IMG/VR virus record: IMGVR_UViG_3300033998_000181
Location: 1-53,416 of that record
Source: a virus
Lineage: Duplodnaviria; Caudoviricetes
Strand: one strand, 5' to 3'
DNA: 53,416 nt
Shown here: piece after piece, positions 5,892-50,276 of the stretch
Layout of the letters: the number at the start of each line of letters is the position of its first letter
How positions within the stretch are numbered: the first letter of the stretch is position 1
Translations under genes and position numbers: made by a program
The notes under the pieces: model-generated
Database searches by the model: none
Told to the model about the DNA's origin: nothing
Seen by the model: only the letters and a program-made list of their open reading frames with translations

Positions 5892-8800
5892 CGTATCCTA
5901 CCTCCTCTCCGTTGGGACTCTCTGAGATTGATAATCTCTAACTTCCTGGCAAGTTCTTTCAGTCCACGTTCGTCAGCAATCAATGTGCCTACATACAGAG
6001 GAGGCATTGGTGATGCGATGCCTTCTGGCATTACCGCAGCGATTGCATCTGCGATCATTTCCGCGAACGGTCTCGCAGCTTCTCCTTGCAACGGTATAAC
6101 AGCTTCAGGTCTGTTGTTACCTGCGAGTCTTACGATTGTATCTCTCGTCACGATGCCGCCGGTGTCTAAAAGTGGCAGCTCTGGAATGTCGGGCAGATCT
6201 ACAGTAAATCCACCAAACGTACCTACAAAAGGTATGTGAAACTCAGGTACACGAATTTGAATTCTATTAAACTTACGAATAAATTTGTTAATCGCTTCGA
6301 TTATATGGTTAATCGTACGTTTAATAGTATCTTTAATTTCATTCCACACCGACTGTGTAGCAGACTTCAAAGACTCCCATATACTCAAGACAGTGTTTTT
6401 CAACTCTTGAAATTTCCCAGTTACGCTTGTGTAAATACCTTGCACTATTCCGCTAATAGTTGTCTGTATAGTTGTCCAAACAGTCGTAACGCTGTTGCTG
6501 ATTTCTTGCATCAACGTTTCGATAGTAGTTTTGATGGCATCCCACCAAGTAAAAACAGACGTCCAAATATCAGTGAGAGCTGTTTCAATAGTAGTTTTGA
6601 TGGTATCCCACCAAGTAGAAACAGAGGTCCAAATATTAGTAAGAATTGTGTCGATAGTAGTTTTAATATTGTTCCACCAAGTGGAAACAGACGTCCAAAT
6701 AGCGACAAGCTTTGTTGTAATTGATGTTTTGATGGCATCCCACCGCGTTGTGATAGAAGTCCAGATTGCGTTAAGCTTCATTTCAATCGCTTGTTTTATC
6801 TGATCCCATTTCGTTTGTACTTCCTGCCTAGTCTGGTCTAACGTTGCAGCTGCTGCCTTCTTAGCATTCGTGAACATAGTAGTTACAACAAGTATAAAGG
6901 TAGCAGCGCCTGCAGCAACGGTCGCAGATATACTCGCAACCCAAGCAGCTACTGCAAAAACGATCGCACCGAGTATTCCAATAATCAACCCTTTATGCTC
7001 TTCGAAAAAGCTGGTTACGGCGCTCAGTCCTTCTGCTGCTCTCTGCTTAAAAGCGTCGAACGACTCGCCTACTCTTGCAGGTAGTTGTTTGATTACATCA
7101 ACGACTCCTTGTACTTTTTCCTGTACCGCCGTCCTAACATCTTCCCACACTTGCCATACCTTTGCGGGAAGGGCTTGAAACGCGTCGACGACACCACGAA
7201 CTCTTTGACGCACATCAGATTCGAAGCCTTCCCATGCTCTCCTCATCCGCTCGAGAGCATCTCTTAAAGGTTGTCCTAACCGATCTAAGCTCTCGTTAAA
7301 CCTGCGTACCCACTCACGCACTCCGGCAGTGGCAAGTGCGTAAAGCACAGCTAGCTTGGCAAGAAACGCAGCTAGATCTTCTACCACGGACGGTAGTGGA
7401 GGGAGGAACTGTGGCGGAGGAATAATAAGAGGTCCTTTATCCTTGAGAGACTTTCCTAACTCCTCCAACTTCTCCTTCAATCGATCTAGCCACCCTACTC
7501 CTTCTTTTAGCTTGCCTTCATCGATAGAAGGAGCACCAATCTCTGGTAGAGCAGGCACGTCAGGTATGTTAGGAATACCAGGTAGAAGGCCGCCCAGATC
7601 GCCTAAGCCTCCGGCACTCATATCTTTGACTTGTTCAGGAACTTCGTACACTTCGTCGAACGCAGCTAAAAACTTCTTAAACTCGCCCCCAGCTTTCTTT
7701 GCTTTGCCCCCTGCTTTCTTGGTGCTATCACCTACATCATCTATAGCATCCTTTGCTGTCCCCAAGCTCTGCCCGCTACTAATGAATTCTTTGAAACTCT
7801 TATTGTACTCACTCCACCATTTGTTTATAGCACTGGGATCTTCCGGCTGCAACATTGAGCCCATATCATATCCAAGCAGCTTCCCCATTTGCCTCATTAT
7901 ACGGTCGAGCCAAGCGCTGGCAGTTTTGGAACTTAAGGCCAGACCGATCAACGCAGCCGAAAGTAAAGTGATGACGCCAATTATCGGGTTTCGTACCATT
8001 GCTGCGTGCAAGGCAAGGATTGCGTTTTTCAACATTACAATTAAACGAGCTACAGGACCCGCAATAGCAAGTGCCTTGATCGCAAGTGCAAGTCGTTGGA
8101 GTAGACTTAACACCGTACCAGTGATGATGAGGGTAGCGATGGTACCTGCAAGGTGTCGCACTAATGGGACGTTGCTGGTAAGCCACTTAGCAAGTTCAGC
8201 TAGTGTCCTGACGAGAGCAGAGATGATAGGAAGTACTATTCCAAGAGTACGAAGGACTATCTCTCCAACGGCAGATGCAATAGGCATTACAGCGTCCCTT
8301 AAAGCTACAAAACCATCTGCTAAACTCTTCAAAGCTATAAGAATTGATTTGATGGTGCCTTGCAGCTGCGGCGGAAACAACTCCTGAAGTAGTGCACCTA
8401 GGCCACGTTCCCTTGTAATCTTCCTTAAATATTGCAACCTATCAGCTAACTGTTCCAATTTAACCCTGATGCTTTCAAAAACTGGAGTAAATACTGTATT
8501 ACCTAAGAACATCAGGTTATCGTGTATATTACTTATCAGTCCGCGAGTAGTCCTGTTAATTCTTTCTGCAGCGCCACCGAAGCGTTTTTCTATTCCAATA
8601 AGCAGTGCTCTAATAGCAGTTTCCGCAGGTATCCCTTGCTTACCTAGATTCTCCATTTGCTTAGCAGTCAACCCAAGTTCTTCCCGTAAAATCTGGAACG
8701 CAGGGATGCCGCGTTCGGCAAGCTGCATCATTTCTTCCCACTCGACCTTACCTTTGGTAAGGATCTGACCGAGTGCATTTGCAATACCTTCCACTACATC

Positions 8801-17049: not shown

Positions 17050-19395
17050 CTATACGGCGTACGTCCAGTAGGAATCAGTATCTAAACCAACCTCTATCGG
17101 AATCGCACTTATGTTGGGTGCCTTATCTATTACCTCAAAAGCACCGCTAAGAGCATCTACCTGGTCGTCATGTGTTCCCCCAGGGAACATTTCTAACTCA
17201 TCTAGGAAGTCATTGATCCAAGGACCACGAACCAGCTTAATTGCTCCTCTTTGTGCGTGTGCACTAACAGGATTCGCCCTGAGAACCTTACTCCCCGTCG
17301 TTCTATGTCCCCTCACGGCAAAGCCTTTTAACAGTTGAGCAAAATGCTCGATTACATACAATCCACTTGATCCAGGCTCCTGTTCTATATAGATACTTAC
17401 GTGACGACCGTCCTTGTATGCTGTTTCCTTAACAAGCTCCTCGACATCGTGCGGCGCCAACCTGTCTCTTTTCACGTCGAGTATGTACCAGTTGGATCTG
17501 GTAGCGCCTAATAGAAGCCCTACGGTCCAGTCGGGGTCCTTTGCTTTTGACTTACCTCTTTGTTGGCCTTTCTCAGTGCCTGCTAAATCCCAATAACGCA
17601 CAATCTTTCTTAGGTGAGGTACTCTATCCACAATTGGGAACCACTGTCTCTTAAACATGTACCCTGCTTCCTTAACGTCCCAATTACCCCACCTCAGCTG
17701 TGCTCTTGTAACAGGATCGAGTTTCGACAGCGACTCTTCGTACTGTGCATGATCGAGGAAAGGATTATCCTCCATACGGGCCGGTATAAATATGCGTCCC
17801 TTACTGGCGCCTTCTATAATAAAGCGTTGTTTTACCCAATCATGCCCTTCGCCGCCCGGGTTACTAGCTGCTCTCATTCTCACCGGCACGGGGAAGCCCT
17901 TCAAGCGACGCAGACGAGAGAAGAGGTAAGTGTATTGTGTCTCCGTAAACTGCGTGAGTTCGTCAAAACCAATAAACTGAAACTCTGCAGATTGATAGCG
18001 GTACTTGTCCTTCTCACTTTCTAGATACCCAAAAGTCAACGTAGCGCCGCTCGGAAAGATCCACTTCTTCTCCCTGTCGTCCCATTTCACTTCAGGGATG
18101 AAGGGTGTTAACAGTTCACGTGCACGATCCAACAACGCTCCTGGAAGCGCCAAGTCAGAATATGTACGACGGAAGAGGATCGCATTATAACCAGGCGTAT
18201 CTACATATTGCAATGCAGCCAAGAGAAGCGCTTCGCTATTGTGTGTCGGAATTAACTCTTTACCTATCAAGAAGATATGACTTAGGTGCTTAATCCGAAT
18301 ACATTTCACGTCTCTTTTGCCTACGTATTTGACACTCTTCACAAACACTTTATTACTGCATACTCTCTTAGATAACAGAGCCTTCTTTCTCTGTAGCCGA
18401 AAGACTTCCAAAGTAGTACTAAATGTTATTCTATGTGAAGGACACTTCTTTCCTTTGTAACTCGAAGGCGCTACAGACCTCGAATACGTAATACCCAACG
18501 ACGACAATAACGTGCAGATGTCATCTGCAAGCCGCTTCTCCTTAAATGCGATCTCACAACGCCCTCTTTTCTGGATGGAACCATCAGAATCCATAATGCC
18601 CTGCAATAAGCTGAGACGTTGCTTAAACGAGCTCAAAAAGTATATCTCTGGAATGTATTTTGTTTCGGGAGCTGTAGTTCTATTGTCATGCTTATCTCTC
18701 AACAATCCCAGCAATCTTAATTGTGTAGTAAGTCCTTCTGCCGTATATTGATTAGGCATACTAGCGTATCTATGCAAAGGCGGCAGATAATTCTTGACCT
18801 CTTCGTAATCCTGCTCTCCTATTGTAATACTACCAGTTCTACTATTTCCATCCCCCAGCCAATAACCAAGTACATAGGGGTCAATAGGTAAATCTTTCTC
18901 TTCGCCTACAACGGCCAACGCTGAAACCAACTTGTCTCCTTCTCTGAGGTCCTTTGTGGTGCAAATCAAATTTCGCCAATACTTTCTATGCTTATATTCT
19001 GTTATGGCCCATAGGTGTTCAGCATCTGCTACGATTTTAGCTCCGTTATTGAAAGTAATTTCATAACAATCATGATCCTTCTGGACGTCCGTAATATATT
19101 CGATATCTGACCAAGTCCCATCTTGCGCCAGCACTTTATCCTCAAGCGTTAACGTACCTATCGTCTTCCAACCCTTATCTGTCAAGATTGGTGTATCCAA
19201 CGCAAGCGCTTTGCCACCACCCGCCGCACCTCCGTAGAGGGCTTCGAGGGTATCTAAGAGGAGGAACGCAATCTGCTTCTCGGTCATAGTCTGGCGCATA
19301 TATTTTGTGGTTTTAGGCGTCATAGCTCTGAGTAACCGGTGGTATACGTCGTATGGCAGCGACGCTGTTTGATTAGATGACACCAAGATCACCAC
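17050..19395 (-). CDS. terL: Terminase large subunit interrupted by an intein
   Basis: Walker A YGGAAGGGK|S, Walker B FIGFDE, ASNPGG.GH.WVK, nuclease RYWDLA and HDDQVDA. Confidence 0.95.
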   Translation of the reverse strand: MVILVSSNQTASLPYDVYHRLLRAMTPKTTKYMRQTMTEKQIAFLLLDTLEALYGGAAGGGKALALDTPILTDKGWKTIGTLTLEDKVLAQDGTWSDIEYITDVQKDHDCYEITFNNGAKIVADAEHLWAITEYKHRKYWRNLICTTKDLREGDKLVSALAVVGEEKDLPIDPYVLGYWLGDGNSRTGSITIGEQDYEEVKNYLPPLHRYASMPNQYTAEGLTTQLRLLGLLRDKHDNRTTAPETKYIPEIYFLSSFKQRLSLLQGIMDSDGSIQKRGRCEIAFKEKRLADDICTLLSSLGITYSRSVAPSSYKGKKCPSHRITFSTTLEVFRLQRKKALLSKRVCSNKVFVKSVKYVGKRDVKCIRIKHLSHIFLIGKELIPTHNSEALLLAALQYVDTPGYNAILFRRTYSDLALPGALLDRARELLTPFIPEVKWDDREKKWIFPSGATLTFGYLESEKDKYRYQSAEFQFIGFDELTQFTETQYTYLFSRLRRLKGFPVPVRMRAASNPGGEGHDWVKQRFIIEGASKGRIFIPARMEDNPFLDHAQYEESLSKLDPVTRAQLRWGNWDVKEAGYMFKRQWFPIVDRVPHLRKIVRYWDLAGTEKGQQRGKSKAKDPDWTVGLLLGATRSNWYILDVKRDRLAPHDVEELVKETAYKDGRHVSIYIEQEPGSSGLYVIEHFAQLLKGFAVRGHRTTGSKVLRANPVSAHAQRGAIKLVRGPWINDFLDELEMFPGGTHDDQVDALSGAFEVIDKAPNISAIPIEVGLDTDSYWTYAV
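18238..19209 (-). mobile_element. Class 3 intein (324 aa) with LAGLIDADG homing endonuclease
   Basis: Starts with Ala (ALALDTPI), has the W-C-T triad (ADAEHLW, VKCI, PTHN), ends HN|S. Endonuclease motifs LGYWLGDG and LQGIMDSDG. Inserted in Walker A. Confidence 0.9.
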
Positions 19396-33167: not shown

Positions 33168-33872
33168 ATGATTGTCTTAAAACCGACTTTCGAGATCATT
33201 ACACCTATGCCATGGGATGAAATGGTTAAGCACGTTGAGAGAGCTGGCCGCGTATGTTATAAGTCTGAATACAGAATCAAGCAAGGGTCCGCGACACAAT
33301 TCATCCGATATATGATTGATAGAGGTCATGAAAGTGTTATCGAACACATTGGCTTCTCAGTACTCTTTACAGTCGATCGCGGCATCACCCACGAACTGGT
33401 ACGGCATCGGCTCGCAAGCTACTCTCAGGAAAGTACCAGATACTGTAATTATGCAAATGCTCGATTCGGCAGTGAGATTGCCGTTATTGGCTTAGGCAAA
33501 GCAATGGATTTGGATTTTAGTATGGATGCCATTACGCCTGAAGAGGCGACACTCATCTTGCAAGAGTGGTTTCAAGCAATGCAGGATGCAGAGCAGCACT
33601 ACATGAAAATGATCGACCTTGGTGCTTCTGCACAAATCGCACGATCCGTTTTACCGCAAAGTGTCAAAGCGGACATTATGGTGACTGCTAACATTAGAGA
33701 ATGGAGACACATCCTTCGCTTACGTACATCTAGAGCAGCGCACCCACAAATGAGAGAAGTCATGATACCATTGCTTTTGAAACTAAAAACGGAATGTCCT
33801 GTGTTCTTCGGTGACATTAAGCCCGATCCTGAAAGTGTAAGGAGGCTTGGTCTTGATGATCCAAATCATTAA
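33168..33872 (+). CDS. thyX: FAD-dependent thymidylate synthase
   Basis: GHESVIEH, RGITHELVRHRLASYSQESTRY, ARSVLP, N.REWRH..LR...AHPQMR. Confidence 0.95.
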   Translation: MIVLKPTFEIITPMPWDEMVKHVERAGRVCYKSEYRIKQGSATQFIRYMIDRGHESVIEHIGFSVLFTVDRGITHELVRHRLASYSQESTRYCNYANARFGSEIAVIGLGKAMDLDFSMDAITPEEATLILQEWFQAMQDAEQHYMKMIDLGASAQIARSVLPQSVKADIMVTANIREWRHILRLRTSRAAHPQMREVMIPLLLKLKTECPVFFGDIKPDPESVRRLGLDDPNH

Positions 33873-35686: not shown

Positions 35687-36139
35687 ATGAGGCCTTCATG
35701 GGATGAGTTTTTTATGAATGTAGCGGTAAACCTTAAAACACGCTCTACTTGTCTACGAAGACAGGTTGGCGCTGTGCTTGTTGCTGAAAGACGTATACTT
35801 GCTACTGGCTACAATGGATCACCTCCCGGTGACGAACATTGCTCGGATATTGGCTGCCTGCGCCAAACTCTTGACATTCCATCTGGGGAGCGTCACGAAA
35901 TTTGTCGCGCAGTTCATGCGGAACAAAATTTGCTCGTGCAACTCGCCAAACATGGTACTACTTGGCCGAGTAGTGCTTGTGTAAAAGTTTACTGTACTAC
36001 GTTTCCTTGTTATATATGTGCAAAGCTTTTAGTGAGTATAGGTGTTAAAGAAATTTACTACATCGATGGTTATCCAGACAAATTATCGGAAGAGCTTCTC
36101 AAACGTATGAATGTGAGATGTATTCAGATGAAACTGTAA
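35687..36139 (+). CDS. dCMP deaminase
   Basis: RPSWDE.FM, RSTC.RRQVGA, TGYNG, HAEQN, PC..CAK. Confidence 0.92.
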   Translation: MRPSWDEFFMNVAVNLKTRSTCLRRQVGAVLVAERRILATGYNGSPPGDEHCSDIGCLRQTLDIPSGERHEICRAVHAEQNLLVQLAKHGTTWPSSACVKVYCTTFPCYICAKLLVSIGVKEIYYIDGYPDKLSEELLKRMNVRCIQMKL

Positions 36140-40887: not shown

Positions 40888-41091
40888 ATGTGTATGGAAA
40901 AAGCTGCAGCCCGTCGCAGGGAGCTTACCTTACACGAAGCTGCGGAAAGGATAGGTAAGCATTACATCACTACATTGAAACTTGCTCGTAGTGGTAAGCT
41001 GCGTGCGATAAAAAAGGGAGGACAATGGTACGTAACGGAAGAAGAGGTAGAAAGATTCAACAGAGAAGGTAATTACAAAGGGGACGATTAA
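40888..41091 (+). CDS. Excisionase-like (HTH_17) DNA-binding protein
   Basis: LTL.EAA..IG.H..T......SGKL.A.K.GGQW.V. Confidence 0.8.
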   Translation: MCMEKAAARRRELTLHEAAERIGKHYITTLKLARSGKLRAIKKGGQWYVTEEEVERFNREGNYKGDD

Positions 41092-41092
41092 G

Positions 41093-41476
41093 GTGGCCAA
41101 TAATTTAACCGATACACGTTTATCTCCTTATATGGAAGATTGTGATGCACTTGACCGTAAGTTCAATCTTACGCATTTGCACGAGCCAAAGATGGTTCAC
41201 GTTGCGTTCTTTACACTTGCCTTGGCAGGTGAAGTAGGTGAATTAACAAATATAGTCAAAAAGATTTGGCGAGACGGAGAAAGTCCGGAGCTTTGGCAAA
41301 AGTTCGACGAAGAGATGGTTGATATCCTGATCTATTTTGTCGAACTTTTAAACGTTACGCGCTGTTCTTTTGATGAAGCATGGAGGAAGAAACGTGAAAT
41401 TCTCAGTAGACGTATGAAGGCGCAAACGGGTTACCAAGTGAAAGACTGGCTGCTATCGTTGATGCGAGAACTCTAA
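41093..41476 (+). CDS. MazG-like all-alpha nucleotide pyrophosphohydrolase
   Basis: LAGEVGEL.N.VKK ... EE..DIL.Y motifs. Confidence 0.85.
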   Translation: MANNLTDTRLSPYMEDCDALDRKFNLTHLHEPKMVHVAFFTLALAGEVGELTNIVKKIWRDGESPELWQKFDEEMVDILIYFVELLNVTRCSFDEAWRKKREILSRRMKAQTGYQVKDWLLSLMREL

Positions 41477-41488
41477 GGAGGTAACTAC

Positions 41489-42034
41489 ATGCCTATTGTT
41501 GCGATTGTTGGCCCTGACGGTGCCGGGAAAACAACTATTGTAGAAGCACTACGAAGCAAGTTGGATTGTGACTATCACAAAGGTTCGTATGAGCCACCAG
41601 ACAAAATGGTTCATACATTGGTAGAGGTCATTTCGAGAGCTCGTCCGAGTAGGATCTTGCTTTGTGATCGCCTTCATTACCCCGACGATATAGTATACTC
41701 TAGAGCAGTACGAAACATTCCTTCTACTTTAGAGTTTGTGGTACCTTTATGTGAATATGTTTTACGTGAGAATGATACGTTCTTACTCTACGTCAACGCA
41801 GGGTTGCACGTCTTAAAGCTTAGGCTCCTCGCTAGGGGCGATGATTATGTCAAAGATTTAAGTGTTTTACCTTTAATACAACGTTACTATGAAGATTTCC
41901 TGAGCAGAACTAGACTACCTTATAAGGTGATAGATACGAGTTGGGCTGATCCTGAAACGGTTGCCGAGCGCGCCGAAATGTATATCGCAGAGCGTTGGCC
42001 AAGACTATATAAGGAGGCTCTTAAACATGAGTAA
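41489..42034 (+). CDS. Deoxynucleotide monophosphate kinase (TMK-like)
   Basis: P-loop GPDGAGKTT, DR..Y...VY, RL.ARGD, IDTS. Confidence 0.8.
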   Translation: MPIVAIVGPDGAGKTTIVEALRSKLDCDYHKGSYEPPDKMVHTLVEVISRARPSRILLCDRLHYPDDIVYSRAVRNIPSTLEFVVPLCEYVLRENDTFLLYVNAGLHVLKLRLLARGDDYVKDLSVLPLIQRYYEDFLSRTRLPYKVIDTSWADPETVAERAEMYIAERWPRLYKEALKHE

Positions 42035-42686
42035 AGCTATAGTATTACTAAGCGGCGGTATGGATTCTGCAGTTACTGCGGCAGTAGCACGTCGAGAAAA
42101 CGAAGAAGTAATCGCGTTAAACGCTTACTATGGACAAAAACATTCCGTCGAGCGTGAGTGCGCTCGCAAGTTAGTAGGGCTACTGAAACTAGATGGCTAT
42201 ATTGAATTAGATTTAAGTTTCATTTTTACGCATATGCGTAGCTCACTCTTACGACTATCCAACATTCCTATTGACGATAACCAACCAAAAAACGAGGTAG
42301 GCGCAACATATGTACCAGGGAGGAATTCGATCTTCTTGTCAATTGCAGCAGGCATAGCAGACTCCATGGGAGCGCAGTTTGTATACTATGGGGCACATCA
42401 AGAGGACCATGCAGGATACCCTGATTGTAGAGCAGAATACTTTGTGGCAATCCGTGACGCTCTCAGATTGGGCACTAAGAATGAAGTGGTTCTCAAGGCA
42501 CCTTTTATCACTAAGCCTAAGAGCTACATTGTCCGAACTGGTATAGAACTCGGCGTCCCGTTCGAACATACACATTCCTGTTATCGCGGCGAGAGACCCG
42601 CGTGCGGCACATGTCCAACGTGTCAGATAAGGTTACAAGCGTTTGCAGAAGCTGGAATCGAGGATCCCTTGCCGTATAGGAGGTAG
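42027..42686 (+). CDS. queC: 7-cyano-7-deazaguanine synthase
   Basis: LSGGMDS, YGQKH..E, TYVPGRN, YPDCR, SCY...CG.C.TC..R; ATG at 42027 after AAGGAGG. Confidence 0.95.
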   Translation: MSKAIVLLSGGMDSAVTAAVARRENEEVIALNAYYGQKHSVERECARKLVGLLKLDGYIELDLSFIFTHMRSSLLRLSNIPIDDNQPKNEVGATYVPGRNSIFLSIAAGIADSMGAQFVYYGAHQEDHAGYPDCRAEYFVAIRDALRLGTKNEVVLKAPFITKPKSYIVRTGIELGVPFEHTHSCYRGERPACGTCPTCQIRLQAFAEAGIEDPLPYRR

Positions 42687-42691
42687 TTAAT

Positions 42692-43120
42692 ATGTACGCC
42701 GTTTCTAAAACGTTTACTTTTGACTGTGCTCATATGTTACCTTTTCATGAAGGACAGTGTAAGAACTTACACGGACATACGTACAAGTTAGAGGTCACTG
42801 TAGCACGAGATATCTTGAATGCTGGAAATAACATGATTGTAGACTTCGCAGAATTAAAGAGTATAGTACAGGAACGCATTATAGATCGTTTTGATCATGC
42901 TTTTGTGTATTGTCAACGTAACGAGTTTGAATGTGAAGTAGCCGAACTATTGGAGAAGCATAACCTGAAAACATTGAAGTTACCTAGTCCTACTACGGTA
43001 GAGAATATGTCTGCATATATTTATAATGTACTCGAAATAGCATTGGAAGACAAGGGCGTAAAACTGGTAAAGGTGCAGTTATGGGAAACCCCTACGAGTC
43101 ATGCTGCTTATTGGAGGTAA
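42692..43120 (+). CDS. queD: 6-carboxy-5,6,7,8-tetrahydropterin synthase
   Basis: FDCAH.L, C.NLHGHTY, DF..LK, FDH, PT.EN, WETPTS. Confidence 0.95.
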   Translation: MYAVSKTFTFDCAHMLPFHEGQCKNLHGHTYKLEVTVARDILNAGNNMIVDFAELKSIVQERIIDRFDHAFVYCQRNEFECEVAELLEKHNLKTLKLPSPTTVENMSAYIYNVLEIALEDKGVKLVKVQLWETPTSHAAYWR

Positions 43121-43124
43121 TGTG

Positions 43125-43721
43125 ATGTATAAACTACCAGTACTAGAAATATTTTCAAGTATTCAGGGCGAAGGATATCATATGGGCAAATGGACAATGT
43201 TTATTCGACTAGCCGGATGTAATTTAAAATGTCCTTGGTGTGATACCAAAGACATAATGCAGATGGCTGCGCGAGATCTTACTGTAGATGATATAGTGAA
43301 AATAGTAGCCAAAAGAAACGCCTCCGTTGTAACTATCACTGGCGGAGAGCCTACCATACATGATATGGAGGCTCTCTCCTACCTAATTTACAAGTTACAG
43401 CTGTTAGGCAAGTACGTTACAATTGAAACCAATGGCACTAACCCTACGCCTGCGAATGTCAATTGGGTTACATGTTCGCCAAAACCTGGTAATGATTACA
43501 AGATTCACTCCAAGTGTAGATACAACGAATTAAAGTACGTAGTAGACGAAACTTTTGCGCCTGAGTATATAACGACATTAGCGATATCGAGAAGGGTACC
43601 TATTTACGTACAGCCTGAAGGAATGAAACCAGAGAACATACGTCGTTGTCTGGAGCTAGTGCAGCATTTTCCTTTTCTTACTCTTGGTGTGCAATTACAC
43701 AAAGTATTGGGGGTACAATAA
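43125..43721 (+). CDS. queE: 7-carboxy-7-deazaguanine synthase (radical SAM)
   Basis: [42 protein letters not shown]. Confidence 0.95.
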
Positions 43722-44278
43722 TGAAAGCACCGAATTTCGTTGAAGCTGGATTTAGAATGATGCTTATCGGGTTAGGTGAAGATCCGGATCGAGAAGGATT
43801 GAAGGCTACTCCACGACGAGTACGTGAAATGTGGGAAGAGATCTTCCGAGGATTAGAATGCGATCCAAAACGTCATTTAGAAACTACTTTCCAAGAAGAT
43901 CACCAAGAGATGGTAGTTGTGAGAGATATTCCGTTCTACTCTATGTGCGAACACCACTTTGTACCTTTCTTTGGAAAAGCACATATCGCCTATATCCCAC
44001 AAGGCAAAGTAGTCGGACTTAGTAAGCTGGCACGTACCTTGGAGGAGTACGCCAGAAGGCCGCAGGTACAGGAACGCCTGACTTCACAAATAGCTGACGC
44101 TATCGACGAAGTGCTGAAGCCCTTAGGAGTAGGAGTAGTGATAGAAGCAGAACATATGTGTATGACAATGAGGGGTATCAAAAAGCCAGGGAGCAAGACT
44201 ATTACCTCTGCGATGCGGGGCGTGTTTCTTGATAAACCGGAGGTACGTGCCGAGTTCATGAACCTTATAGGGAGGTAA
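43721..44278 (+). CDS. folE: GTP cyclohydrolase I
   Basis: [40 protein letters not shown]. Confidence 0.97.
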
Positions 44279-44282
44279 CAAT

Positions 44283-45059
44283 ATGCAAGTTGCTTCCATT
44301 GTACCTATACACTATCTTCCTCTCATCAAGGGCAAACCGTACCATTTGTGTCTTGCTCACTTAGCTCTCAATTACACCGAGTATCGAGACTTTTACAAAG
44401 AGGAAGCACAAAACGGAAGCTATGTGATATTAGACAACGGAGCTGCGGAAGGAGAAACAGTAGAAATACAGGAGCTTTTACAACTCGCTATATACCTAGG
44501 AGCTTCCGAAGTGATTCTCCCGGACTTTATAGGGGATTACGAGAAAACTATAACAGAGTCTTATAGAGCATTACACTACATCAAAAGTAGAGAAGACTAC
44601 AAAGGAAAGGTTATGGCAGTGCCTCAAGCAAGTTCATTTAAGAGCTGGCTAACAGCTGCAGAGGAGATGTTAACTTGGCCTATCGATACCTTGGGGATAC
44701 CTAAATTTCTAACATACGCCTTCGGGCCTTGTGCTCGTTTACTTGCCTTACATCGCTTAAGATCCTCACTCAGCTTTCTTAGAGCACAAGGTAAAATACA
44801 GATTCACTTGCTTGGATGTGCGTATGATCCACGTGAGGTTGGTACCATAAAGGAACTGTCACCGATACCAGTCAGAGGGGTAGATAGCTCGTTGCCTTAT
44901 CTATTAGCGCGCGACGGACATTATTTGTTGCATGCATACAGGCATCATATACAACGCAGTCAAGAGCCTGTAGATTTCCTGGACAAAGAAACAGATCCAG
45001 GCTTCGTAGCTGCGAACATACAAGTGTGGGAAGACATATGTGCCGGCGAGCTTGTATAG
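44283..45059 (+). CDS. TGT-fold 7-deazaguanine transglycosylase-like protein (divergent DpdA-like)
   Basis: Ordered TGT-like motifs ILDNGA, EVILPD, IHLLG, RGVDSS; lies directly after folE in the preQ0 cluster. Confidence 0.65.
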   Translation: MQVASIVPIHYLPLIKGKPYHLCLAHLALNYTEYRDFYKEEAQNGSYVILDNGAAEGETVEIQELLQLAIYLGASEVILPDFIGDYEKTITESYRALHYIKSREDYKGKVMAVPQASSFKSWLTAAEEMLTWPIDTLGIPKFLTYAFGPCARLLALHRLRSSLSFLRAQGKIQIHLLGCAYDPREVGTIKELSPIPVRGVDSSLPYLLARDGHYLLHAYRHHIQRSQEPVDFLDKETDPGFVAANIQVWEDICAGELV

Positions 45060-45071
45060 GAGGTTGGGCAA

Positions 45072-47450
45072 ATGTCACAATGGTCTCATTTATGTAAAGG
45101 ATGTGTATATGAGCGTTATCCAAAGATACCGCCTAGTCCTTTAAAAGGGGCTAGGCTCGCTATTGTTGGCGAAGCACCAGGTGTAATAGAACTTGCACGC
45201 AAGAAACCTTTTGTAGGGCCTTCAGGGGAGTTGTTGAGGAAAACGTTTCAGCACGTAGGGTTGCCTAATTTAGACGAAGTCTTTATAACCAATGCACTCT
45301 TATGTCGACCTCCTAAAGGTCAGATCAACAAACAAGCAGTGAGCTTGTGTAGTCGAAGGTTAATCGATGAACTCGTCAGAGTGAGTCCTAGAGTAATAAT
45401 TGCTTTCGGTAATACTGCGATTCATGCATTGACGGGTGACTTCAAGTTAAAGATAACTCAAATACAAGGACAGGTGTTACAGTCTGACTTACTAAAACCT
45501 TGCAACCCTGCTATTGTACCAGTGTTGCATCCGGCAGCAGTGCTTCGTGCTGGAGGCGCCTTTGGGCAATTTGTACAGGCGTTGCGCAGAGCATACGAAG
45601 TATACGTCACAGGAGAAGTAAGAAAGTTGCCCGAGCCGACATTTACAGTCATCGAAAACGGAGCTATGTTAGAACGTGCAATTAAAGGACTAGTCAAACG
45701 TCCCTTGCTTGGCGGGGACATTGAAACCCACGGTAACCCTCGTACTGGACGTATATTGTGCTTAGGTGTGTGCTGGAACGAACCAAAAGGGACGGATCCT
45801 GAACCGGGACGAGTATTGATTTTCCCAGAGGATATGATTCCGTACACCAAACCACTCCTCGAGCACCCTTACCCTAAGTGGATATGGCAAGGTGGAAAGT
45901 ATGATATGGAATGGCTATGGGAGAGAGGCATTAAAGCGCGACTCGATCACGATACTATGATGTTACACTACGCTCTCTGCGAACAAACTGGTACTCATGG
46001 GCTAGATAAGTTGTCGGTGCTCTACCTGGGTGACGAGCCTTATAAGCATGTAGTTCGTGACTACAGTAAAGGCAAGAAAAAAGAAGGCTTCGGCGATGTA
46101 CCGAAGGAAGTGTTGTATCCTTACTTGGCAAAAGACGTAGACAGAATGGTACGTCTGTTCCATATATTCTACCCAAAGGTTATGTCAGACAGAGACCTTA
46201 TGAAATTGTACTACAGACTATTACTTCCAGCGAATCGTTTCCTTGTTAAAGTACAAAGCAGAGGACTCCTGGTAAACTTCGAAGAATTAGAGGAGGAAGA
46301 TGCGCGTCTACAGGAGGAAATAGAACAATTAGAGAGGGAGATTATAGAGCTAGCAGCGCCCTACTGGGACCCTGACGAGTACTTAGCACAAACAGACAGG
46401 AAAACAGCGACAGAAATTTTCAAGCCCAGTAGTACGTACCAGTTGGCGTGGCTGTTGTATGAAAAACTAGGATTACGTGCCAAGTATATGAAGGGGAGGA
46501 GTACCAAAGAAGAGGTTCTCGAGCAGTTAAAGGGACAACATCCAATAGTAGACAAGATTTTGGAGTATCGTGAGGTCAAAAAGTTACATTCGACGTACAT
46601 TAGAGGTACCCAAAAATGGATTGAGGAGGACGGTAGAGTACATACAGGATACAAGGTACACGGTACCGTCACGGGAAGGTTAAGTTCAAGCCAACCTAAT
46701 GTTCAAAACATACCAAAGAAGATTCGTAGAATCTATCACGCGCCTCCCGGATTCGTTTTAATTGATGCTGACTATAGCGGCGCCGAGTTACGCATACTAG
46801 CGTACGTTAGCGGCGACAAAGAACTGGTACAGATTTTTAAGGAAGGACGCAGCTTGCATAAGGAAGTGGCTAGAGAGTTCTTCGGCCCTAACTATACAGA
46901 TGAGCAGTACATGAGGGCGAAAGCAGTAAACTTTGGCATAGCCTATGGTAGGACAGCGTTCTCGCTATCCGTCGAGATGGACATTCCTCAAGAAGAAGCA
47001 CAATCGTATATCGATCGCTGGTATGCGCGGTTCCCTGAAGCGCATAAATACTTGTTAGAGTGCGATGCAGCTGCACGTCGTGGAGAAGTACTCGTTACTG
47101 ACTTAGGCAGAAAGCGGAGATTTGGTCTCGTGACACCTGAGAACGTAGATACTCTAGAAAATGAAGCACGTAACTTTAGAATCCAATCACTAGCGAGTGA
47201 TATGACGCTTATCTCTGCTATACGCATGGATCCACTTATCAATCGTTGGGGCGCTCGAGTTGTAAACTTGGTTCATGACAGTATTGTCATTGAGTGTCCT
47301 ATTACCGAAGTAAAAAGAACAATTCGTCTTGCACACAACATCATGGTACGTACGCCTAGAGAAATATTAAAGACAGACATCCCATTCGAAGCTGAGTTCA
47401 AAGTAGGCTTTGTTTGGGGTAAAGACATGATGGAATTTAAAGTCGAGTAG
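45072..47450 (+). CDS. polA: Family A DNA polymerase with N-terminal family-4 UDG-like domain and 3'-5' exonuclease
   Basis: UDG: C..C, GEAPG..E, PFVG.SG, NA..CRP, HPA. Exonuclease: DIET, KYD, Y...D. Polymerase: TGRLSS, DYS.AELR, KAVNFGI.YG, VHDS. Confidence 0.93.
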   Translation: MSQWSHLCKGCVYERYPKIPPSPLKGARLAIVGEAPGVIELARKKPFVGPSGELLRKTFQHVGLPNLDEVFITNALLCRPPKGQINKQAVSLCSRRLIDELVRVSPRVIIAFGNTAIHALTGDFKLKITQIQGQVLQSDLLKPCNPAIVPVLHPAAVLRAGGAFGQFVQALRRAYEVYVTGEVRKLPEPTFTVIENGAMLERAIKGLVKRPLLGGDIETHGNPRTGRILCLGVCWNEPKGTDPEPGRVLIFPEDMIPYTKPLLEHPYPKWIWQGGKYDMEWLWERGIKARLDHDTMMLHYALCEQTGTHGLDKLSVLYLGDEPYKHVVRDYSKGKKKEGFGDVPKEVLYPYLAKDVDRMVRLFHIFYPKVMSDRDLMKLYYRLLLPANRFLVKVQSRGLLVNFEELEEEDARLQEEIEQLEREIIELAAPYWDPDEYLAQTDRKTATEIFKPSSTYQLAWLLYEKLGLRAKYMKGRSTKEEVLEQLKGQHPIVDKILEYREVKKLHSTYIRGTQKWIEEDGRVHTGYKVHGTVTGRLSSSQPNVQNIPKKIRRIYHAPPGFVLIDADYSGAELRILAYVSGDKELVQIFKEGRSLHKEVAREFFGPNYTDEQYMRAKAVNFGIAYGRTAFSLSVEMDIPQEEAQSYIDRWYARFPEAHKYLLECDAAARRGEVLVTDLGRKRRFGLVTPENVDTLENEARNFRIQSLASDMTLISAIRMDPLINRWGARVVNLVHDSIVIECPITEVKRTIRLAHNIMVRTPREILKTDIPFEAEFKVGFVWGKDMMEFKVE

Positions 47451-47479
47451 AAAGGAGGGATAAAGATGTACAAAACAAG

Positions 47480-47659
47480 GTGGAGGCTTTCTTGAAGGAG
47501 TTATCAGAGTTAACTCAAAAGTATGGACTTGTTATCGAGTCCTGTGGGTGCTGCAACGGTCCTTGGTTAAGAGATCTACACAAAGACAAAGTTGTAGCCC
47601 GCTTGATTATGTTTGACAAAGAGAAACAAAAGTATGAGAAATTTGAGTTTAGCAAATAG
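47480..47659 (+). CDS. Hypothetical protein (CGCC motif)
   Basis: VEAFLKELSELTQKYGLVIESCGCCNGPWL...; fills the polA-nrdJ gap; start uncertain. Confidence 0.5.
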   Translation: MEAFLKELSELTQKYGLVIESCGCCNGPWLRDLHKDKVVARLIMFDKEKQKYEKFEFSK

Positions 47660-47673
47660 ACAGGAGGGGTAAT

Positions 47674-49848
47674 ATGAACAAATGGACGGCTCAACGCGAC
47701 ATTGTGTTTAAGGATCGTTATGCTTTAAGAGATGAAAACGGCAATCTAATCGAAACTACACCTGAGCAAATGTGGAGAAGAGTTGCTAACACTGTTGGCC
47801 AAAATGCAGGAGAGAGAATGCAATTTTATGAGATTCTCAAAGACTTCAAATTTGTGCCAGGCGGGAGGATACTCTCAGGGGCTGGCACAGAGCGCTTAGT
47901 GACGTTCTACAACTGCTACGTTATCCCCGTACGGTCCTCTGACCCATCAAAAGGGAACGACAGTCGTCAGGGGATAATGGACACCATAAAAACCATAGTT
48001 GAAATCACGTCACGCGGCGGCGGTGTCGGAGTGAACTGGTCAACTTTGAGACCTAGAGGTGCTTATGTCAAAGGCGTCAATGGTACCAGTTCAGGGCCAG
48101 TAAGTTGGATGATAGGAGCCGACGCTATTATACAGCAAGTAGAGCAAGGCGGCTCTAGACGTGGTGCGCAAATGTACATGCTTGATGACTGGCATCCTAG
48201 CGTTATTGAATTTATCCAAGCGAAACAGGATTTGAAAGTGATACAAAGTGCAAACTTGTCTGTAGGCGTATCAGATAAGTTCATGAAAGCAGTTGAGAAG
48301 GATGAAGATTGGACTTTCATTTTCCCTGATACAAAACATCCTGACTACAACAAGGTGTGGAACGGCGACATTCAAGAATGGCTTGACCGCGGCTTGCCTG
48401 TTGTAGAGTATGGTACCATTGGGGCGCGCGAACTCTGGAACATGATTTGTGAGTCTGCATGGAAGTGCGGTGAACCTGGTGTCGTCTGGACAGAACGGTA
48501 CAATAAAATGTCCAACACCTGGTACCTTGAACGTATTAGATGTGTCAACCCTTGTGGTGAGCAAGGACTAGGTGAATGGGGTGTATGTAACTTAGGATCT
48601 ATAAATTTGGCAGCCTTTGTCAAGAATAATAAGTTAGATTTCGAGAGCTTAGGAAGTACTATAGCTGTTGCTGTCAGGTTCCTCGACAATGTTATAGAAA
48701 TCAATCAGTACATCAATGAAGAAATGAAAAACCATCAGTTTAAGGTGAGACGCGTCGGCTTAGGTACCATGGGGTTGGCAGATGCGTTATTGTTACTTGG
48801 ACTACGATATGGCAGTGATGAAGCAGCCAGCTTCGTAGAGCTTTTGTTTAAGTTTATACGAGACGAAGCGTACAAGGCGAGCATACAGTTGGCTAAAGAA
48901 CGCGGCCCGGCACCAGGCTTCGACAAAGAGAAGTACTTACAAGGCGAATTTATACAACGACTTCCACAGGAAATTATTGAATCGATTGCCACGCACGGGA
49001 TACGTAACTTGGTCTTGCTAACACAGGCACCAACTGGTACTACGTCAATATTGGCTGGCGTCAGCTCTGGTATTGAACCTATCTATAGTTGGACTTATAA
49101 ACGTAAGGATCGTACCGGAGAACACATTGTTAAGCACCCACTGTACGAGCAGTATGAAGGCAAAGAACTTCCCAGCTACTTTGTAACTGCTATGGAACTT
49201 ACACCTGAAGAGCATGTACGAATGCAAGCGGCTATACAGAAATATGTCGATAGCAGTATCAGTAAGACTGTTAACGCACCTCAAAACCATACTGTAGATC
49301 AAGTTAAAAAGTTATTCACACTAGCATATAAATTAGGTTGCAAGGGGATTACTTACTACAGGGAAGGGTCAAGAGAAGGAGTATTACAAACAATTAAGGA
49401 GCAGTCATTAGAACCCTGTAAGAGGCCCAGGAAACTACAGGGGGTAACAGTCGATTGGGAGACGCCTCTAGGCAAACTGTTTGTAACTCTAAACAGAAAC
49501 CCGGAAGGAAGACCATTTGAAGTATTTTGTCAGATAGGTAAAGCTGGTTCAGATGTAGCTGCCTTTACAGAAGCGATCGCACGTCTTATTTCATTGTGTC
49601 TTAGAAGCGGGGTAGATATCAAACATGTTGTCGATCAACTCTACGGTATCGGCGGTTATATGCAGATAGGCTTCGGAGCTAACAGAGTACGTTCGGTGCC
49701 AGACGCGATCGCGCAAGCATTACATTACTTGATTGATGATAAAATAATAGGCACCGAACTTGGTATCTGTCCTTCTTGTGGCGCAGGCGCGCTAGTGCAA
49801 GAGGAAGGCTGCTCTAAATGTATGAGCTGCGGTTACAGCCAATGCTAA
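47674..49848 (+). CDS. nrdJ: Class II (B12-dependent) ribonucleotide reductase with C-terminal TSCPD/zinc ribbon
   Basis: PGGRIL, NCYV, GGGVG, QGG.RRGA, NPCGEQ, CNLGS, APTGT, SISKT.N, C-terminal CPSCG...C.KC..CGYS.C; no NrdB gene in the window. Confidence 0.9.
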   Translation: MNKWTAQRDIVFKDRYALRDENGNLIETTPEQMWRRVANTVGQNAGERMQFYEILKDFKFVPGGRILSGAGTERLVTFYNCYVIPVRSSDPSKGNDSRQGIMDTIKTIVEITSRGGGVGVNWSTLRPRGAYVKGVNGTSSGPVSWMIGADAIIQQVEQGGSRRGAQMYMLDDWHPSVIEFIQAKQDLKVIQSANLSVGVSDKFMKAVEKDEDWTFIFPDTKHPDYNKVWNGDIQEWLDRGLPVVEYGTIGARELWNMICESAWKCGEPGVVWTERYNKMSNTWYLERIRCVNPCGEQGLGEWGVCNLGSINLAAFVKNNKLDFESLGSTIAVAVRFLDNVIEINQYINEEMKNHQFKVRRVGLGTMGLADALLLLGLRYGSDEAASFVELLFKFIRDEAYKASIQLAKERGPAPGFDKEKYLQGEFIQRLPQEIIESIATHGIRNLVLLTQAPTGTTSILAGVSSGIEPIYSWTYKRKDRTGEHIVKHPLYEQYEGKELPSYFVTAMELTPEEHVRMQAAIQKYVDSSISKTVNAPQNHTVDQVKKLFTLAYKLGCKGITYYREGSREGVLQTIKEQSLEPCKRPRKLQGVTVDWETPLGKLFVTLNRNPEGRPFEVFCQIGKAGSDVAAFTEAIARLISLCLRSGVDIKHVVDQLYGIGGYMQIGFGANRVRSVPDAIAQALHYLIDDKIIGTELGICPSCGAGALVQEEGCSKCMSCGYSQC

Positions 49849-49949
49849 CCCTGGCTCGGGGAAACAATTTATTCCCCATCACTTAAAAATCAAGTGCTAG
49901 AGAAGTTATTTTCTAAACCATTTTAATCCAAATAATAAGACACCAGGTA

Positions 49950-50276
49950 TTAACCTGGTGTTTTATTATTTACTCGCGCAGTACGCACGTAGTTTAACAG
50001 TTCATAGATGACATCACTGCCGGCCGCGATCAGGAAGCCTGTTATGGTGATTTCTACCCAAGCATGCTTCACTGCTAAGCCCAAAGCACCCAAAATACCG
50101 GTGTTAGTTTCGTACGCTAACAGAACACCTAAAATAACCGACACTGTAATAGAAGTATACCTATGAAAGTTCTCAGGAAGCTTCAAATATTGTGTCCAAA
50201 GTTTAATTAGATCAACTACTACCTTAACAACAAACGACAAAGCTATAATCAACGAAACAGTTTGTTCGTTCACCAT
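49950..50276 (-). CDS. Holin
   Basis: 108 aa with about three hydrophobic segments, ITG..IA.GS; follows the endolysin. Confidence 0.75.
   Translation of the reverse strand: MVNEQTVSLIIALSFVVKVVVDLIKLWTQYLKLPENFHRYTSITVSVILGVLLAYETNTGILGALGLAVKHAWVEITITGFLIAAGSDVIYELLNYVRTARVNNKTPG

Follow-up and report, generated by a model that had tools for sequence, protein, structure and literature searches.

In some phages, 7-deazaguanines take the place of 100% of the guanine, and how this comes about is the question addressed here with a gene cluster from an uncultured siphovirus. The DNA analysed (hereafter the window) is the IMG/VR virus record IMGVR_UViG_3300033998_000181, comprising 53,416 bases with a CheckV completeness of 79%, so that about one fifth of the genome lies out of view. 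A compact run of genes on its plus strand (41093-49848) combines the enzymes of preQ0 (7-cyano-7-deazaguanine) synthesis with a 258-residue protein of tRNA-guanine transglycosylase (TGT) fold, a MazG-like protein, a P-loop kinase and a DNA polymerase. By homology this run is a DpdA3-type 7-deazaguanine DNA-modification module, and we propose that guanine would be exchanged before replication, on free deoxyguanine nucleotides; we put the probability of this route at about one half. The genes in question are listed below, followed by two further genes of the window on which the argument will draw.

41093..41476, plus strand: MazG-like all-alpha nucleoside triphosphate (NTP) pyrophosphohydrolase, 127 residues, GTG start (PHROG 229, E 6.6e-8)
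41489..42034, plus strand: P-loop nucleotide/nucleoside kinase-like protein, YorR/Tmk/dNK-like, 181 residues (PHROG 761 'thymidylate kinase', E 2.2e-13)
42027..42686, plus strand: QueC, preQ0 synthase, 219 residues (PF06508, E 2e-63; TIGR00364, 195.9 versus a cut-off of 150.3)
42692..43120, plus strand: QueD, 6-carboxytetrahydropterin synthase (PF01242, E 4.6e-35; TIGR03367, 95.6 versus a cut-off of 89.25)
43101..43721, plus strand: QueE-like radical SAM protein, compact 7-carboxy-7-deazaguanine synthase (PHROG 2076, E 1.4e-38; Radical_SAM, E 3e-14)
43721..44278, plus strand: FolE, GTP cyclohydrolase I (PF01227, E 3.1e-79; TIGR00063, 258.9 versus a cut-off of 181.6)
44283..45059, plus strand: DpdA3-family transglycosylase, 258 residues, predicted minimal TGT-fold TIM barrel (hhalign against phiST CGPG_00065; fold searches)
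45072..47450, plus strand: family A DNA polymerase (PolA) with an N-terminal family-4 uracil-DNA glycosylase (UDG)-like domain and a 3'-5' exonuclease, 792 residues (PF00476, E 3.2e-87; PF03167, E 5.9e-22; PF01612, E 2.8e-11)
45072-45626, plus strand: the UDG-like domain, forming the N-terminus of PolA
47674..49848, plus strand: NrdJ, class II (B12-dependent) ribonucleotide reductase with a TSCPD domain (TIGR02504, 610.2 versus 399.95; PF02867, E 4.9e-135)
33168-33872, within the window: ThyX
35687-36139, within the window: dCMP deaminase

All of the genes that an earlier sequence-only reading of this DNA had named were recovered on the plus strand where it had put them (Pfam, PHROGs and NCBIfam), including nrdJ just behind polA. 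QueC, QueD, FolE and NrdJ pass their NCBIfam equivalog cut-offs; for QueE, every NCBIfam QueE model stays under its cut-off (best 91.1 versus 200). By these family assignments, FolE, QueD, QueE and QueC are the enzymes that make preQ0 from GTP. Throughout the interval 41093..47450, neighbouring genes overlap or are separated by gaps of at most 12 nt. The true start of queC is the ATG at 42027, behind AAGGAGG, so the gene does overlap the kinase stop, as had been noticed before, and does so by 8 nt; the likely start of folE, the ATG at 43721, overlaps the stop of queE by 1 nt. The genes are translationally coupled. The run belongs to a block of replication and nucleotide-metabolism genes on the plus strand (~32-50 kb) of a siphovirus-type genome, the terminase, portal, major head, major tail and tape-measure genes of which are located on the minus strand (PHROGs).

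The 258-residue protein has no match in Pfam or NCBIfam, and in PHROGs it matches only phrog_20335 (E 4.1e-14), a family that has neither a name nor an assigned function. A tblastn search against phages retrieved 13 records, one of them being Cellulophaga phage phiST (CGPG_00065, E 3e-12), whose protein was named DpdA3 by Cui, Hutinet et al. (2023, NAR, PMC10516641). A profile of 50 homologues of the window protein aligned with CGPG_00065 at a probability of 99.8% over 241 columns (hhalign, E 3.3e-29), and it also matched gp056 of phage CP220 (E 9.6e-26). By these profile comparisons the protein is a member of the published DpdA3 subfamily, which provides the placement among DpdA subfamilies that the sequence-only reading had proposed as a check. 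Hence, at the level of the gene, the window adds one more module of the DpdA3 kind to a subfamily already known, whose family counts 5585 representatives at E <= 0.001. The canonical TGT family (PF01702) matches neither the protein, nor its 50 homologues, nor anything else in the record. For DpdA4 (DUF6610, PF20314), the window protein is without a match, and the weak matches of eight among the 50 homologues (E 1.7e-4 at best) suggest no more than a remote relation. A tblastn search of phages with E. coli TGT returned bacterial-type tgt only and was of no help for this placement. As regards existing annotation, DpdA3-like matches in MW354669, MW354677 and MW354678 (phages BSTP5, BSTP10 and BSTP12) bear the names 'putative integrase/recombinase', 'polynucleotide kinase' and 'NADR_SALTY trifunctional...'; the BSTP5 coding sequence so annotated is a DpdA3 homologue, and the homologues of phiST and CP220 are annotated as 'hypothetical'.

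Because further sequence searches were uninformative (phmmer and profile searches against PDB sequences gave nothing meaningful, and hhalign of the DpdA3 profile against the single E. coli TGT sequence gave no usable match), a fold search was needed. An AlphaFold2 model calculated from the homologue alignment reached a pLDDT of 96.1, and all 50 of the 50 Foldseek matches listed were TGTs, with a probability of 1.00. VIA-align, which is independent of Foldseek, placed the DNA preQ0 insertase DpdA (7ui4) at the top (Z 17.0, root-mean-square deviation 3.6 Å, 235 residues aligned), followed by ArcTGT (Z 16.7), TGT (16.6), QTRT2 and Cap10, with generic TIM barrels at 14.9 or less. As modelled, the protein has a TIM-barrel fold of the TGT/DpdA type.

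The invariant residues of the 50 homologues include D51 (in DNGAAE), E56, D81, R152, H175, G178, D201 (in GVDS) and N245, with Q115 being nearly invariant. The DNGA motif occupies residues 51-54, and D51 falls, in weak alignments, opposite the Asp of the DSGAF motifs of DpdA2 (E 3.6e-4) and DpdA1 (E 0.013). Judging from the order of the residues and the TGT numbering, the acidic residues of DpdA3 may correspond to Asp102 and Asp280 of TGT. H175 is the sole Cys or His among the invariant columns, and there is no conserved Cys cluster; the CxCxxC...H zinc motif is thus absent. Two remarks of the sequence-only reading, DNGA in place of DSG and the missing zinc site, are therefore borne out by the alignment. 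The chain ends about 57 residues past D201. DpdA3 looks like an intact, minimal base-exchange catalyst. A third remark, that small size and lack of zinc point to exchange on a free nucleotide, did not survive: these traits do not discriminate, because DpdA2, one of the subfamilies for which Cui et al. (2023) report insertion into DNA, measures only 240 residues in phage phi38:2. We also rejected charge as a clue to DNA binding, since isoelectric points of ~5-6 are common to all types (DpdA3 median 5.4, n = 205; DpdA1, DpdA2 and E. coli TGT similar) and do not separate them.

A nucleotide-level route is suggested, though not proved, by the nucleotide-handling genes beside DpdA3. The first gene of the run scores under the Pfam cut-off for MazG (17.9 versus 22) and just under that for dUTPase_2 (22.2 versus 22.9). 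Among 40 of its homologues, E47, E50, E74 and D77 of the metal-binding EExxE...ExxD pattern are invariant, and 36 match PF03819; the family profile finds DCTPP1 at E 4.9e-14 and, partially (profile positions 66-104), MazZ (7ody) at E 4.8e-4. By motif and profile the protein is a MazG-like all-alpha NTP pyrophosphohydrolase, and the step proposed for it is the cleavage of dGTP to dGMP and pyrophosphate. The kinase resembles YorR of SPbeta (PDB 2axp, E 1.7e-6, residues 2-156), and G8, G13, K14, D60, R61, R112 and D118 are invariant among 13 homologues. On the grounds of full-length homology, the P-loop, the DR motif and the lid Arg, it belongs with the YorR/dNK-like P-loop kinases. A thymidylate kinase equivalog was considered and rejected, the scores being 22.9 versus a cut-off of 83.25 for TIGR00041 and 24.9 versus 27 for PF02223, with only the P-loop region (residues 4-31) aligned.

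The fusions found among DpdA3 relatives speak most directly for a functional link between these proteins. All 14 distinct DpdA3 clusters longer than 300 residues (431-463 residues) turned out to carry a kinase domain of the window type N-terminal to DpdA3 (hidden Markov model E 1e-27 to 1e-47), and the top 150 family representatives include 13 of the 14. BLASTP of the window kinase against two such fusions gave E 2e-10 and 3e-9, and a precomputed match to dNK (PF01712) is on record for the fused kinases. Two of the related loci examined for gene order (L021 and L031) also encode a kinase-DpdA3 fusion, and in two others (L020 and L027) a MazG-like domain is fused to the kinase. Longer DpdA3 homologues of 453-2000 residues were searched for and none was found, which is weak evidence; a complex prediction for DpdA3 and the kinase scored 0.01, which speaks neither for nor against binding. 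These fusions join opposed activities (dNTP cleavage and a kinase) with the exchange enzyme, an arrangement hard to explain if DpdA3 handles polymer DNA only. It becomes understandable if dGTP is the substrate of the hydrolase, if DpdA3 works on the deoxynucleotide so formed, and if the kinase then takes up the modified product.

The neighbourhood was then compared across 81 IMG/VR loci, collapsed at >=90% identity to 76 non-redundant ones, with phiST left out. Of the 59 loci with a flank of 2.5 kb upstream of DpdA3, 40 have a MazG-like gene in that stretch; in 58 of 73, the start of PolA follows DpdA3 by no more than 1.2 kb; and at least three of FolE, QueD, QueE and QueC are present in 35 of 44 well-flanked related loci. 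Such an order, recurring across the 76 loci, indicates that the arrangement is not due to chance. The co-occurrence that the sequence-only reading had proposed to look for was thus seen for the MazG-like, polymerase and synthesis genes, but only in a minority of loci for the kinase, whose counts are given below. As controls we used the whole records of three DpdA1/DpdA2 phages, JenK1, GottfriedDienst and phi38:2: profile searches found the window kinase and MazG families in none of the three, and GottfriedDienst has an annotated pyrophosphatase that the MazG-like profile does not match. In four loci, ORFs of PF18909 ('dATP/dGTP diphosphohydrolase, N-terminal'; E 1e-19 to 1e-22) stand directly upstream of DpdA3:

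L006:8581-8997, PF18909 ORF
L009:7898-8266, PF18909 ORF
L011:789-1148, PF18909 ORF
L014:3747-4205, PF18909 ORF

In L006, L009 and L014 this ORF accompanies a MazG-like gene, giving two tandem NTP pyrophosphatases; a Pfam scan found no PF18909 match in the window. DUF3310 proteins are encoded just upstream of DpdA3 in three further loci (L010:7969-8274, L041:2202-2810 and L061:2789-3094).

The UDG-like domain is present in 60 of 62 non-redundant PolAs next to DpdA3 (loci L002-L082), as well as in those of BSTP5 and Youna2. However, the UDG-like/PolA fusion is not specific to DpdA3, since 44 phage records have it and many of these (e.g., Serratia, Yersinia, Microcystis and Thermus phages) give no DpdA3 match. 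Adjacency to PolA was likewise discarded as a DpdA3-specific sign.

The route we propose would run as follows. The MazG-like enzyme would cleave dGTP to dGMP, at once removing the competitor and supplying the substrate; on the deoxynucleotide, DpdA3 would put preQ0 in the place of guanine; the product would be phosphorylated by the P-loop kinase or, where a phage has none, by a kinase of the host; host nucleoside diphosphate kinase would make the triphosphate; and the adjacent UDG-like/PolA protein would incorporate it. The outcome would be a near-complete replacement of dG by dPreQ0, protecting the DNA against restriction. DpdA3 would then be not a DNA transglycosylase but the first exchanger of free deoxyguanine nucleotides in the TGT superfamily, acting in a MazG-DpdA3-(kinase)-PolA pathway of which the window would hold the full, self-contained version, with an all-dPreQ0 genome as the result; the odds of this being true appear to us to be even. 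A similar logic is known from the dCTPase, dCMP hydroxymethylase and deoxynucleoside monophosphate kinase of phage T4, of which the proposed route would be the purine counterpart. Z-genome phages, too, rely on host kinases.

The comparison with Z-genomes (PurZ/MazZ/DatZ/DpoZ; Czernecki et al. 2021, PMC8342488) had already been drawn in the sequence-only reading. In that system a MazG-like (d)GTP diphosphohydrolase feeds a base-converting enzyme (MazZ makes dGMP from dGTP for PurZ), the dNTP that would compete is eliminated, and the new base enters the DNA through a PolA encoded nearby. The chemistry differs, as PurZ builds the base on the nucleotide and DpdA3 would exchange it. Moreover, a DpoZ identity of the window PolA had to be rejected (NF038380, 99.2 versus a cut-off of 500; NF038381, 51.6 versus 350), and the match of the MazG-like family to MazZ is the weak one given above. 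The parallel stands as an analogy of function, but not as family membership.

What base would the window phage use? According to Cui et al. (2023), 100% of G is replaced in all three DpdA3 phages tested, by dDG in phiST, dADG in CP220 and fdPreQ1 in Flavobacterium phage immuto_2-6A, whereas modification in DpdA1, DpdA2 and DpdA4 phages amounts to 30% at most. A prediction of near-complete substitution thus has a precedent. A Pfam scan of the 52 ORFs of the window, a record ~79% complete, detected no QueF, amidotransferase, phosphoribosyltransferase (PRTase), DpdL, DpdM or DpdN, in keeping with the earlier remark that neither QueF nor an amidinotransferase is visible. With a QueC equivalog and no DpdL, the replacing base is most likely preQ0, and the earlier forecast of dPreQ0 or a derivative holds as a prediction. 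We favour preQ0 also because the window QueC passes TIGR00364 while the QueC-like protein of CP220 does not (139.5 versus 150.3), though this contrast carries little weight, and the final base could also be dADG or the outcome of an additional modification that escaped recognition. For none of these three published DpdA3 phages is dPreQ0 the final base. Salvage of a host-made base is suggested at one locus (L075), where no FolE or QueCDE was found in the 9-kb flanks and a Vut_1 gene (YhhQ-type preQ0 transporter-like, 7867-8505) lies ~0.5 kb upstream of DpdA3.

Among characterised phages, phiST shares with the window a homologous DpdA3, FolE, QueD and QueE. It also has a MazG-like gene, and the gene immediately ahead of its DpdA3 encodes a P-loop protein, the order being MazG, DpdL, an AAA_18 P-loop protein and DpdA3. 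Unlike the window, it has DpdL and no QueC, which speaks for 7-deazaguanine as the base; its AAA_18 protein does not match the window-kinase profile, and its polymerase is of another type, with no PolA match. In Campylobacter phage CP220, DpdA3 (gp056) adjoins gp057, a kinase-like protein of the window kinase family (profile E 1.2e-5), and directly upstream lies gp055, an HD phosphohydrolase fused to an AAA_33 P-loop kinase-like domain (L095:2543-3574). The latter is not a MazG protein but may correspond to the fusions of MazG with the kinase. CP220 differs from the window in being a 177-kb myovirus with a family B polymerase, and its preQ0-pathway genes (QueC, FolE) are ~46-55 kb away from DpdA3. 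The order found in the window recurs in Bacillus phage BSTP5 and Weizmannia phage Youna2, namely QueC...QueD, QueE, FolE...kinase, DpdA3 and UDG-like PolA. The QueC proteins of Youna2 and the Bacillus BSTP5/BSP7 group are 62-64% identical to that of the window, so that by QueC and by architecture these are its closest cultured relatives, which hints at a Bacillota host. The BSTP5 and Youna2 loci differ in having no MazG-family match, and a term search of the Youna2 paper returned nothing on DNA modification. Brevundimonas phage MaInes has QueC, QueD, QueE, DpdA3 and UDG-PolA like the window, but its kinase is of another family (DNMK, PF21448) and a PRTase is added (L096:13026-14492), which is annotated as xanthine PRTase and adjoins the DNMK-type kinase and FolE. 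Finally, the DpdA1/DpdA2 systems (nonagviruses/seuratviruses and phi38:2/phiSM-like phages) have in common with the window the preQ0 pathway and a TGT-fold DpdA, whose DSGAF aligns weakly with DNGAAE. They differ in that the DpdA3 profile does not match them, that the kinase and MazG families are absent from the three whole records, and that their modification is reported as partial and post-replicative (Cui et al. 2023).

The main alternative to exchange on free nucleotides is that DpdA3 is a DNA-guanine transglycosylase inserting preQ0 into finished phage DNA at very high efficiency, an explanation we hold to be possible without favouring it. The MazG-like protein and the kinase could then serve the general nucleotide supply (e.g., as dTMP kinase together with ThyX and dCMP deaminase) or host shut-off, or else the P-loop protein could be an ATPase helper, in analogy to the pairing of DpdA with DpdB in bacteria. 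Much of what we found weighs for this alternative and against our own proposal. The closest solved fold is that of a DNA preQ0 insertase. Only 12 of the 76 non-redundant loci have a kinase of the window family (the uncollapsed set of 82 gave 14), and in eight of 59 it is encoded at most 2.5 kb upstream of DpdA3. At least in the clade closest to the window, the kinase is no general companion of DpdA3. In 21 long DpdA3 records without a local kinase, 12 of which are >=90% complete, a profile search that recovered four positive controls found none elsewhere, and DNMK (PF21448) and Tmk (PF02223) were also found in none of the 21, so that most sampled DpdA3 phages have no kinase of the three families; an N-terminal P-loop (Walker A) appeared in just one of 157 unassigned upstream ORFs. 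Nineteen of the 59 loci have no MazG-like gene upstream, and DpdA1 genes are also found near a polymerase, which deprives the PolA adjacency of specificity. Kinases of the YorR-like family occur, by tblastn, in Bacillus phages without a DpdA3 match, and with ThyX and dCMP deaminase in the window a dTMP-kinase role is conceivable. Cui et al. (2023) argue for post-replicative insertion for all these modifications, and according to their paper every DpdA enzyme tested to date acts on DNA.

Nevertheless, insertion into finished DNA leaves unexplained why kinase-DpdA3 and MazG-kinase fusions recur, why MazG-like, PF18909 and HD phosphohydrolase genes stand directly beside DpdA3, and why none of the three DpdA1/DpdA2 phages has these families. 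Against a dTMP-kinase role speaks the Tmk match confined to the P-loop. Furthermore, DpdA3 expressed in E. coli without its neighbours was inactive and gave no DNA modification, and infected cells contained free ADG nucleoside (Cui et al. 2023), both of which we count for the free-nucleotide route. As for phages without the window-type kinase, other kinase families may fill the role, such as DNMK in MaInes. The free-nucleotide route of the sequence-only reading thus gains from the fusions, the MazG-DpdA3 order, the PF18909 neighbours and the CP220 flanks, but loses from the rarity of the kinase and contradicts the published view. It is also conceivable, though improbable to our mind, that the modified nucleotide arises by another path (e.g., from preQ0 and phosphoribosyl pyrophosphate via a PRTase, a kinase and NrdJ) with DpdA3 mopping up residual G, or that DpdA3 works on nucleosides together with a deoxynucleoside kinase. 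The free ADG nucleoside, rather than a nucleotide, reported for CP220-infected cells (Cui et al. 2023) would agree with this, as would the PRTases in the clusters of MaInes and of L056 (7194-8657, with FolE2), the dNK match of the fused kinases and the position of NrdJ just behind PolA. However, no PRTase was found among the 52 ORFs of the window, a record ~79% complete, and ribonucleotide reductase genes are common in phage replication modules whatever the modification. In the literature searched, Cui et al. (2023) was the only source found on DpdA3 in phages, and no published proposal of a nucleotide-level DpdA3 route was found.

Some features around the cluster deserve a brief comment. The run might be regulated by a 67-residue HTH_17 protein (40888-41091, plus strand), whose gene stops 1 nt short of the MazG-like gene, and a 59-residue ORF between PolA and NrdJ (47480-47659, plus strand) has no family match in Pfam, PHROGs or NCBIfam. 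Between 36000 and 50500, we counted 24 promoter-like sites (25.5 ± 5.7 in shuffled sequence) and 16 terminator-like sites (9.8 ± 3.2, i.e., about two standard deviations higher than shuffled), and no site convincingly divides the cluster. Megablast of 41000-50000 against phages returned no near-identical DNA. Elsewhere in the window, the ORF of the terminase large subunit (17050-19395, minus strand) is long (781 residues), with additional matches to the primase and DnaC-like P-loop families phrog_510 and phrog_50 (PHROGs) over its first ~290 residues; it may contain an extra N-terminal domain or represent a merged gene.

Where DpdA3 acts can be tested directly, since there are cultured, tractable phages with the same architecture, namely the B. 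subtilis BSTP5/BSP7 group, Weizmannia phage Youna2 and Brevundimonas phage MaInes. If the exchange does take place on free nucleotides, the DpdA family would split into enzymes working at the level of DNA and enzymes working at the level of the nucleotide pool, and the TGT fold would gain a new class of substrates. Clusters such as the one described here would then also supply the few genes needed for cells to produce fully 7-deaza-G DNA, much as the Z-cluster did for diaminopurine.

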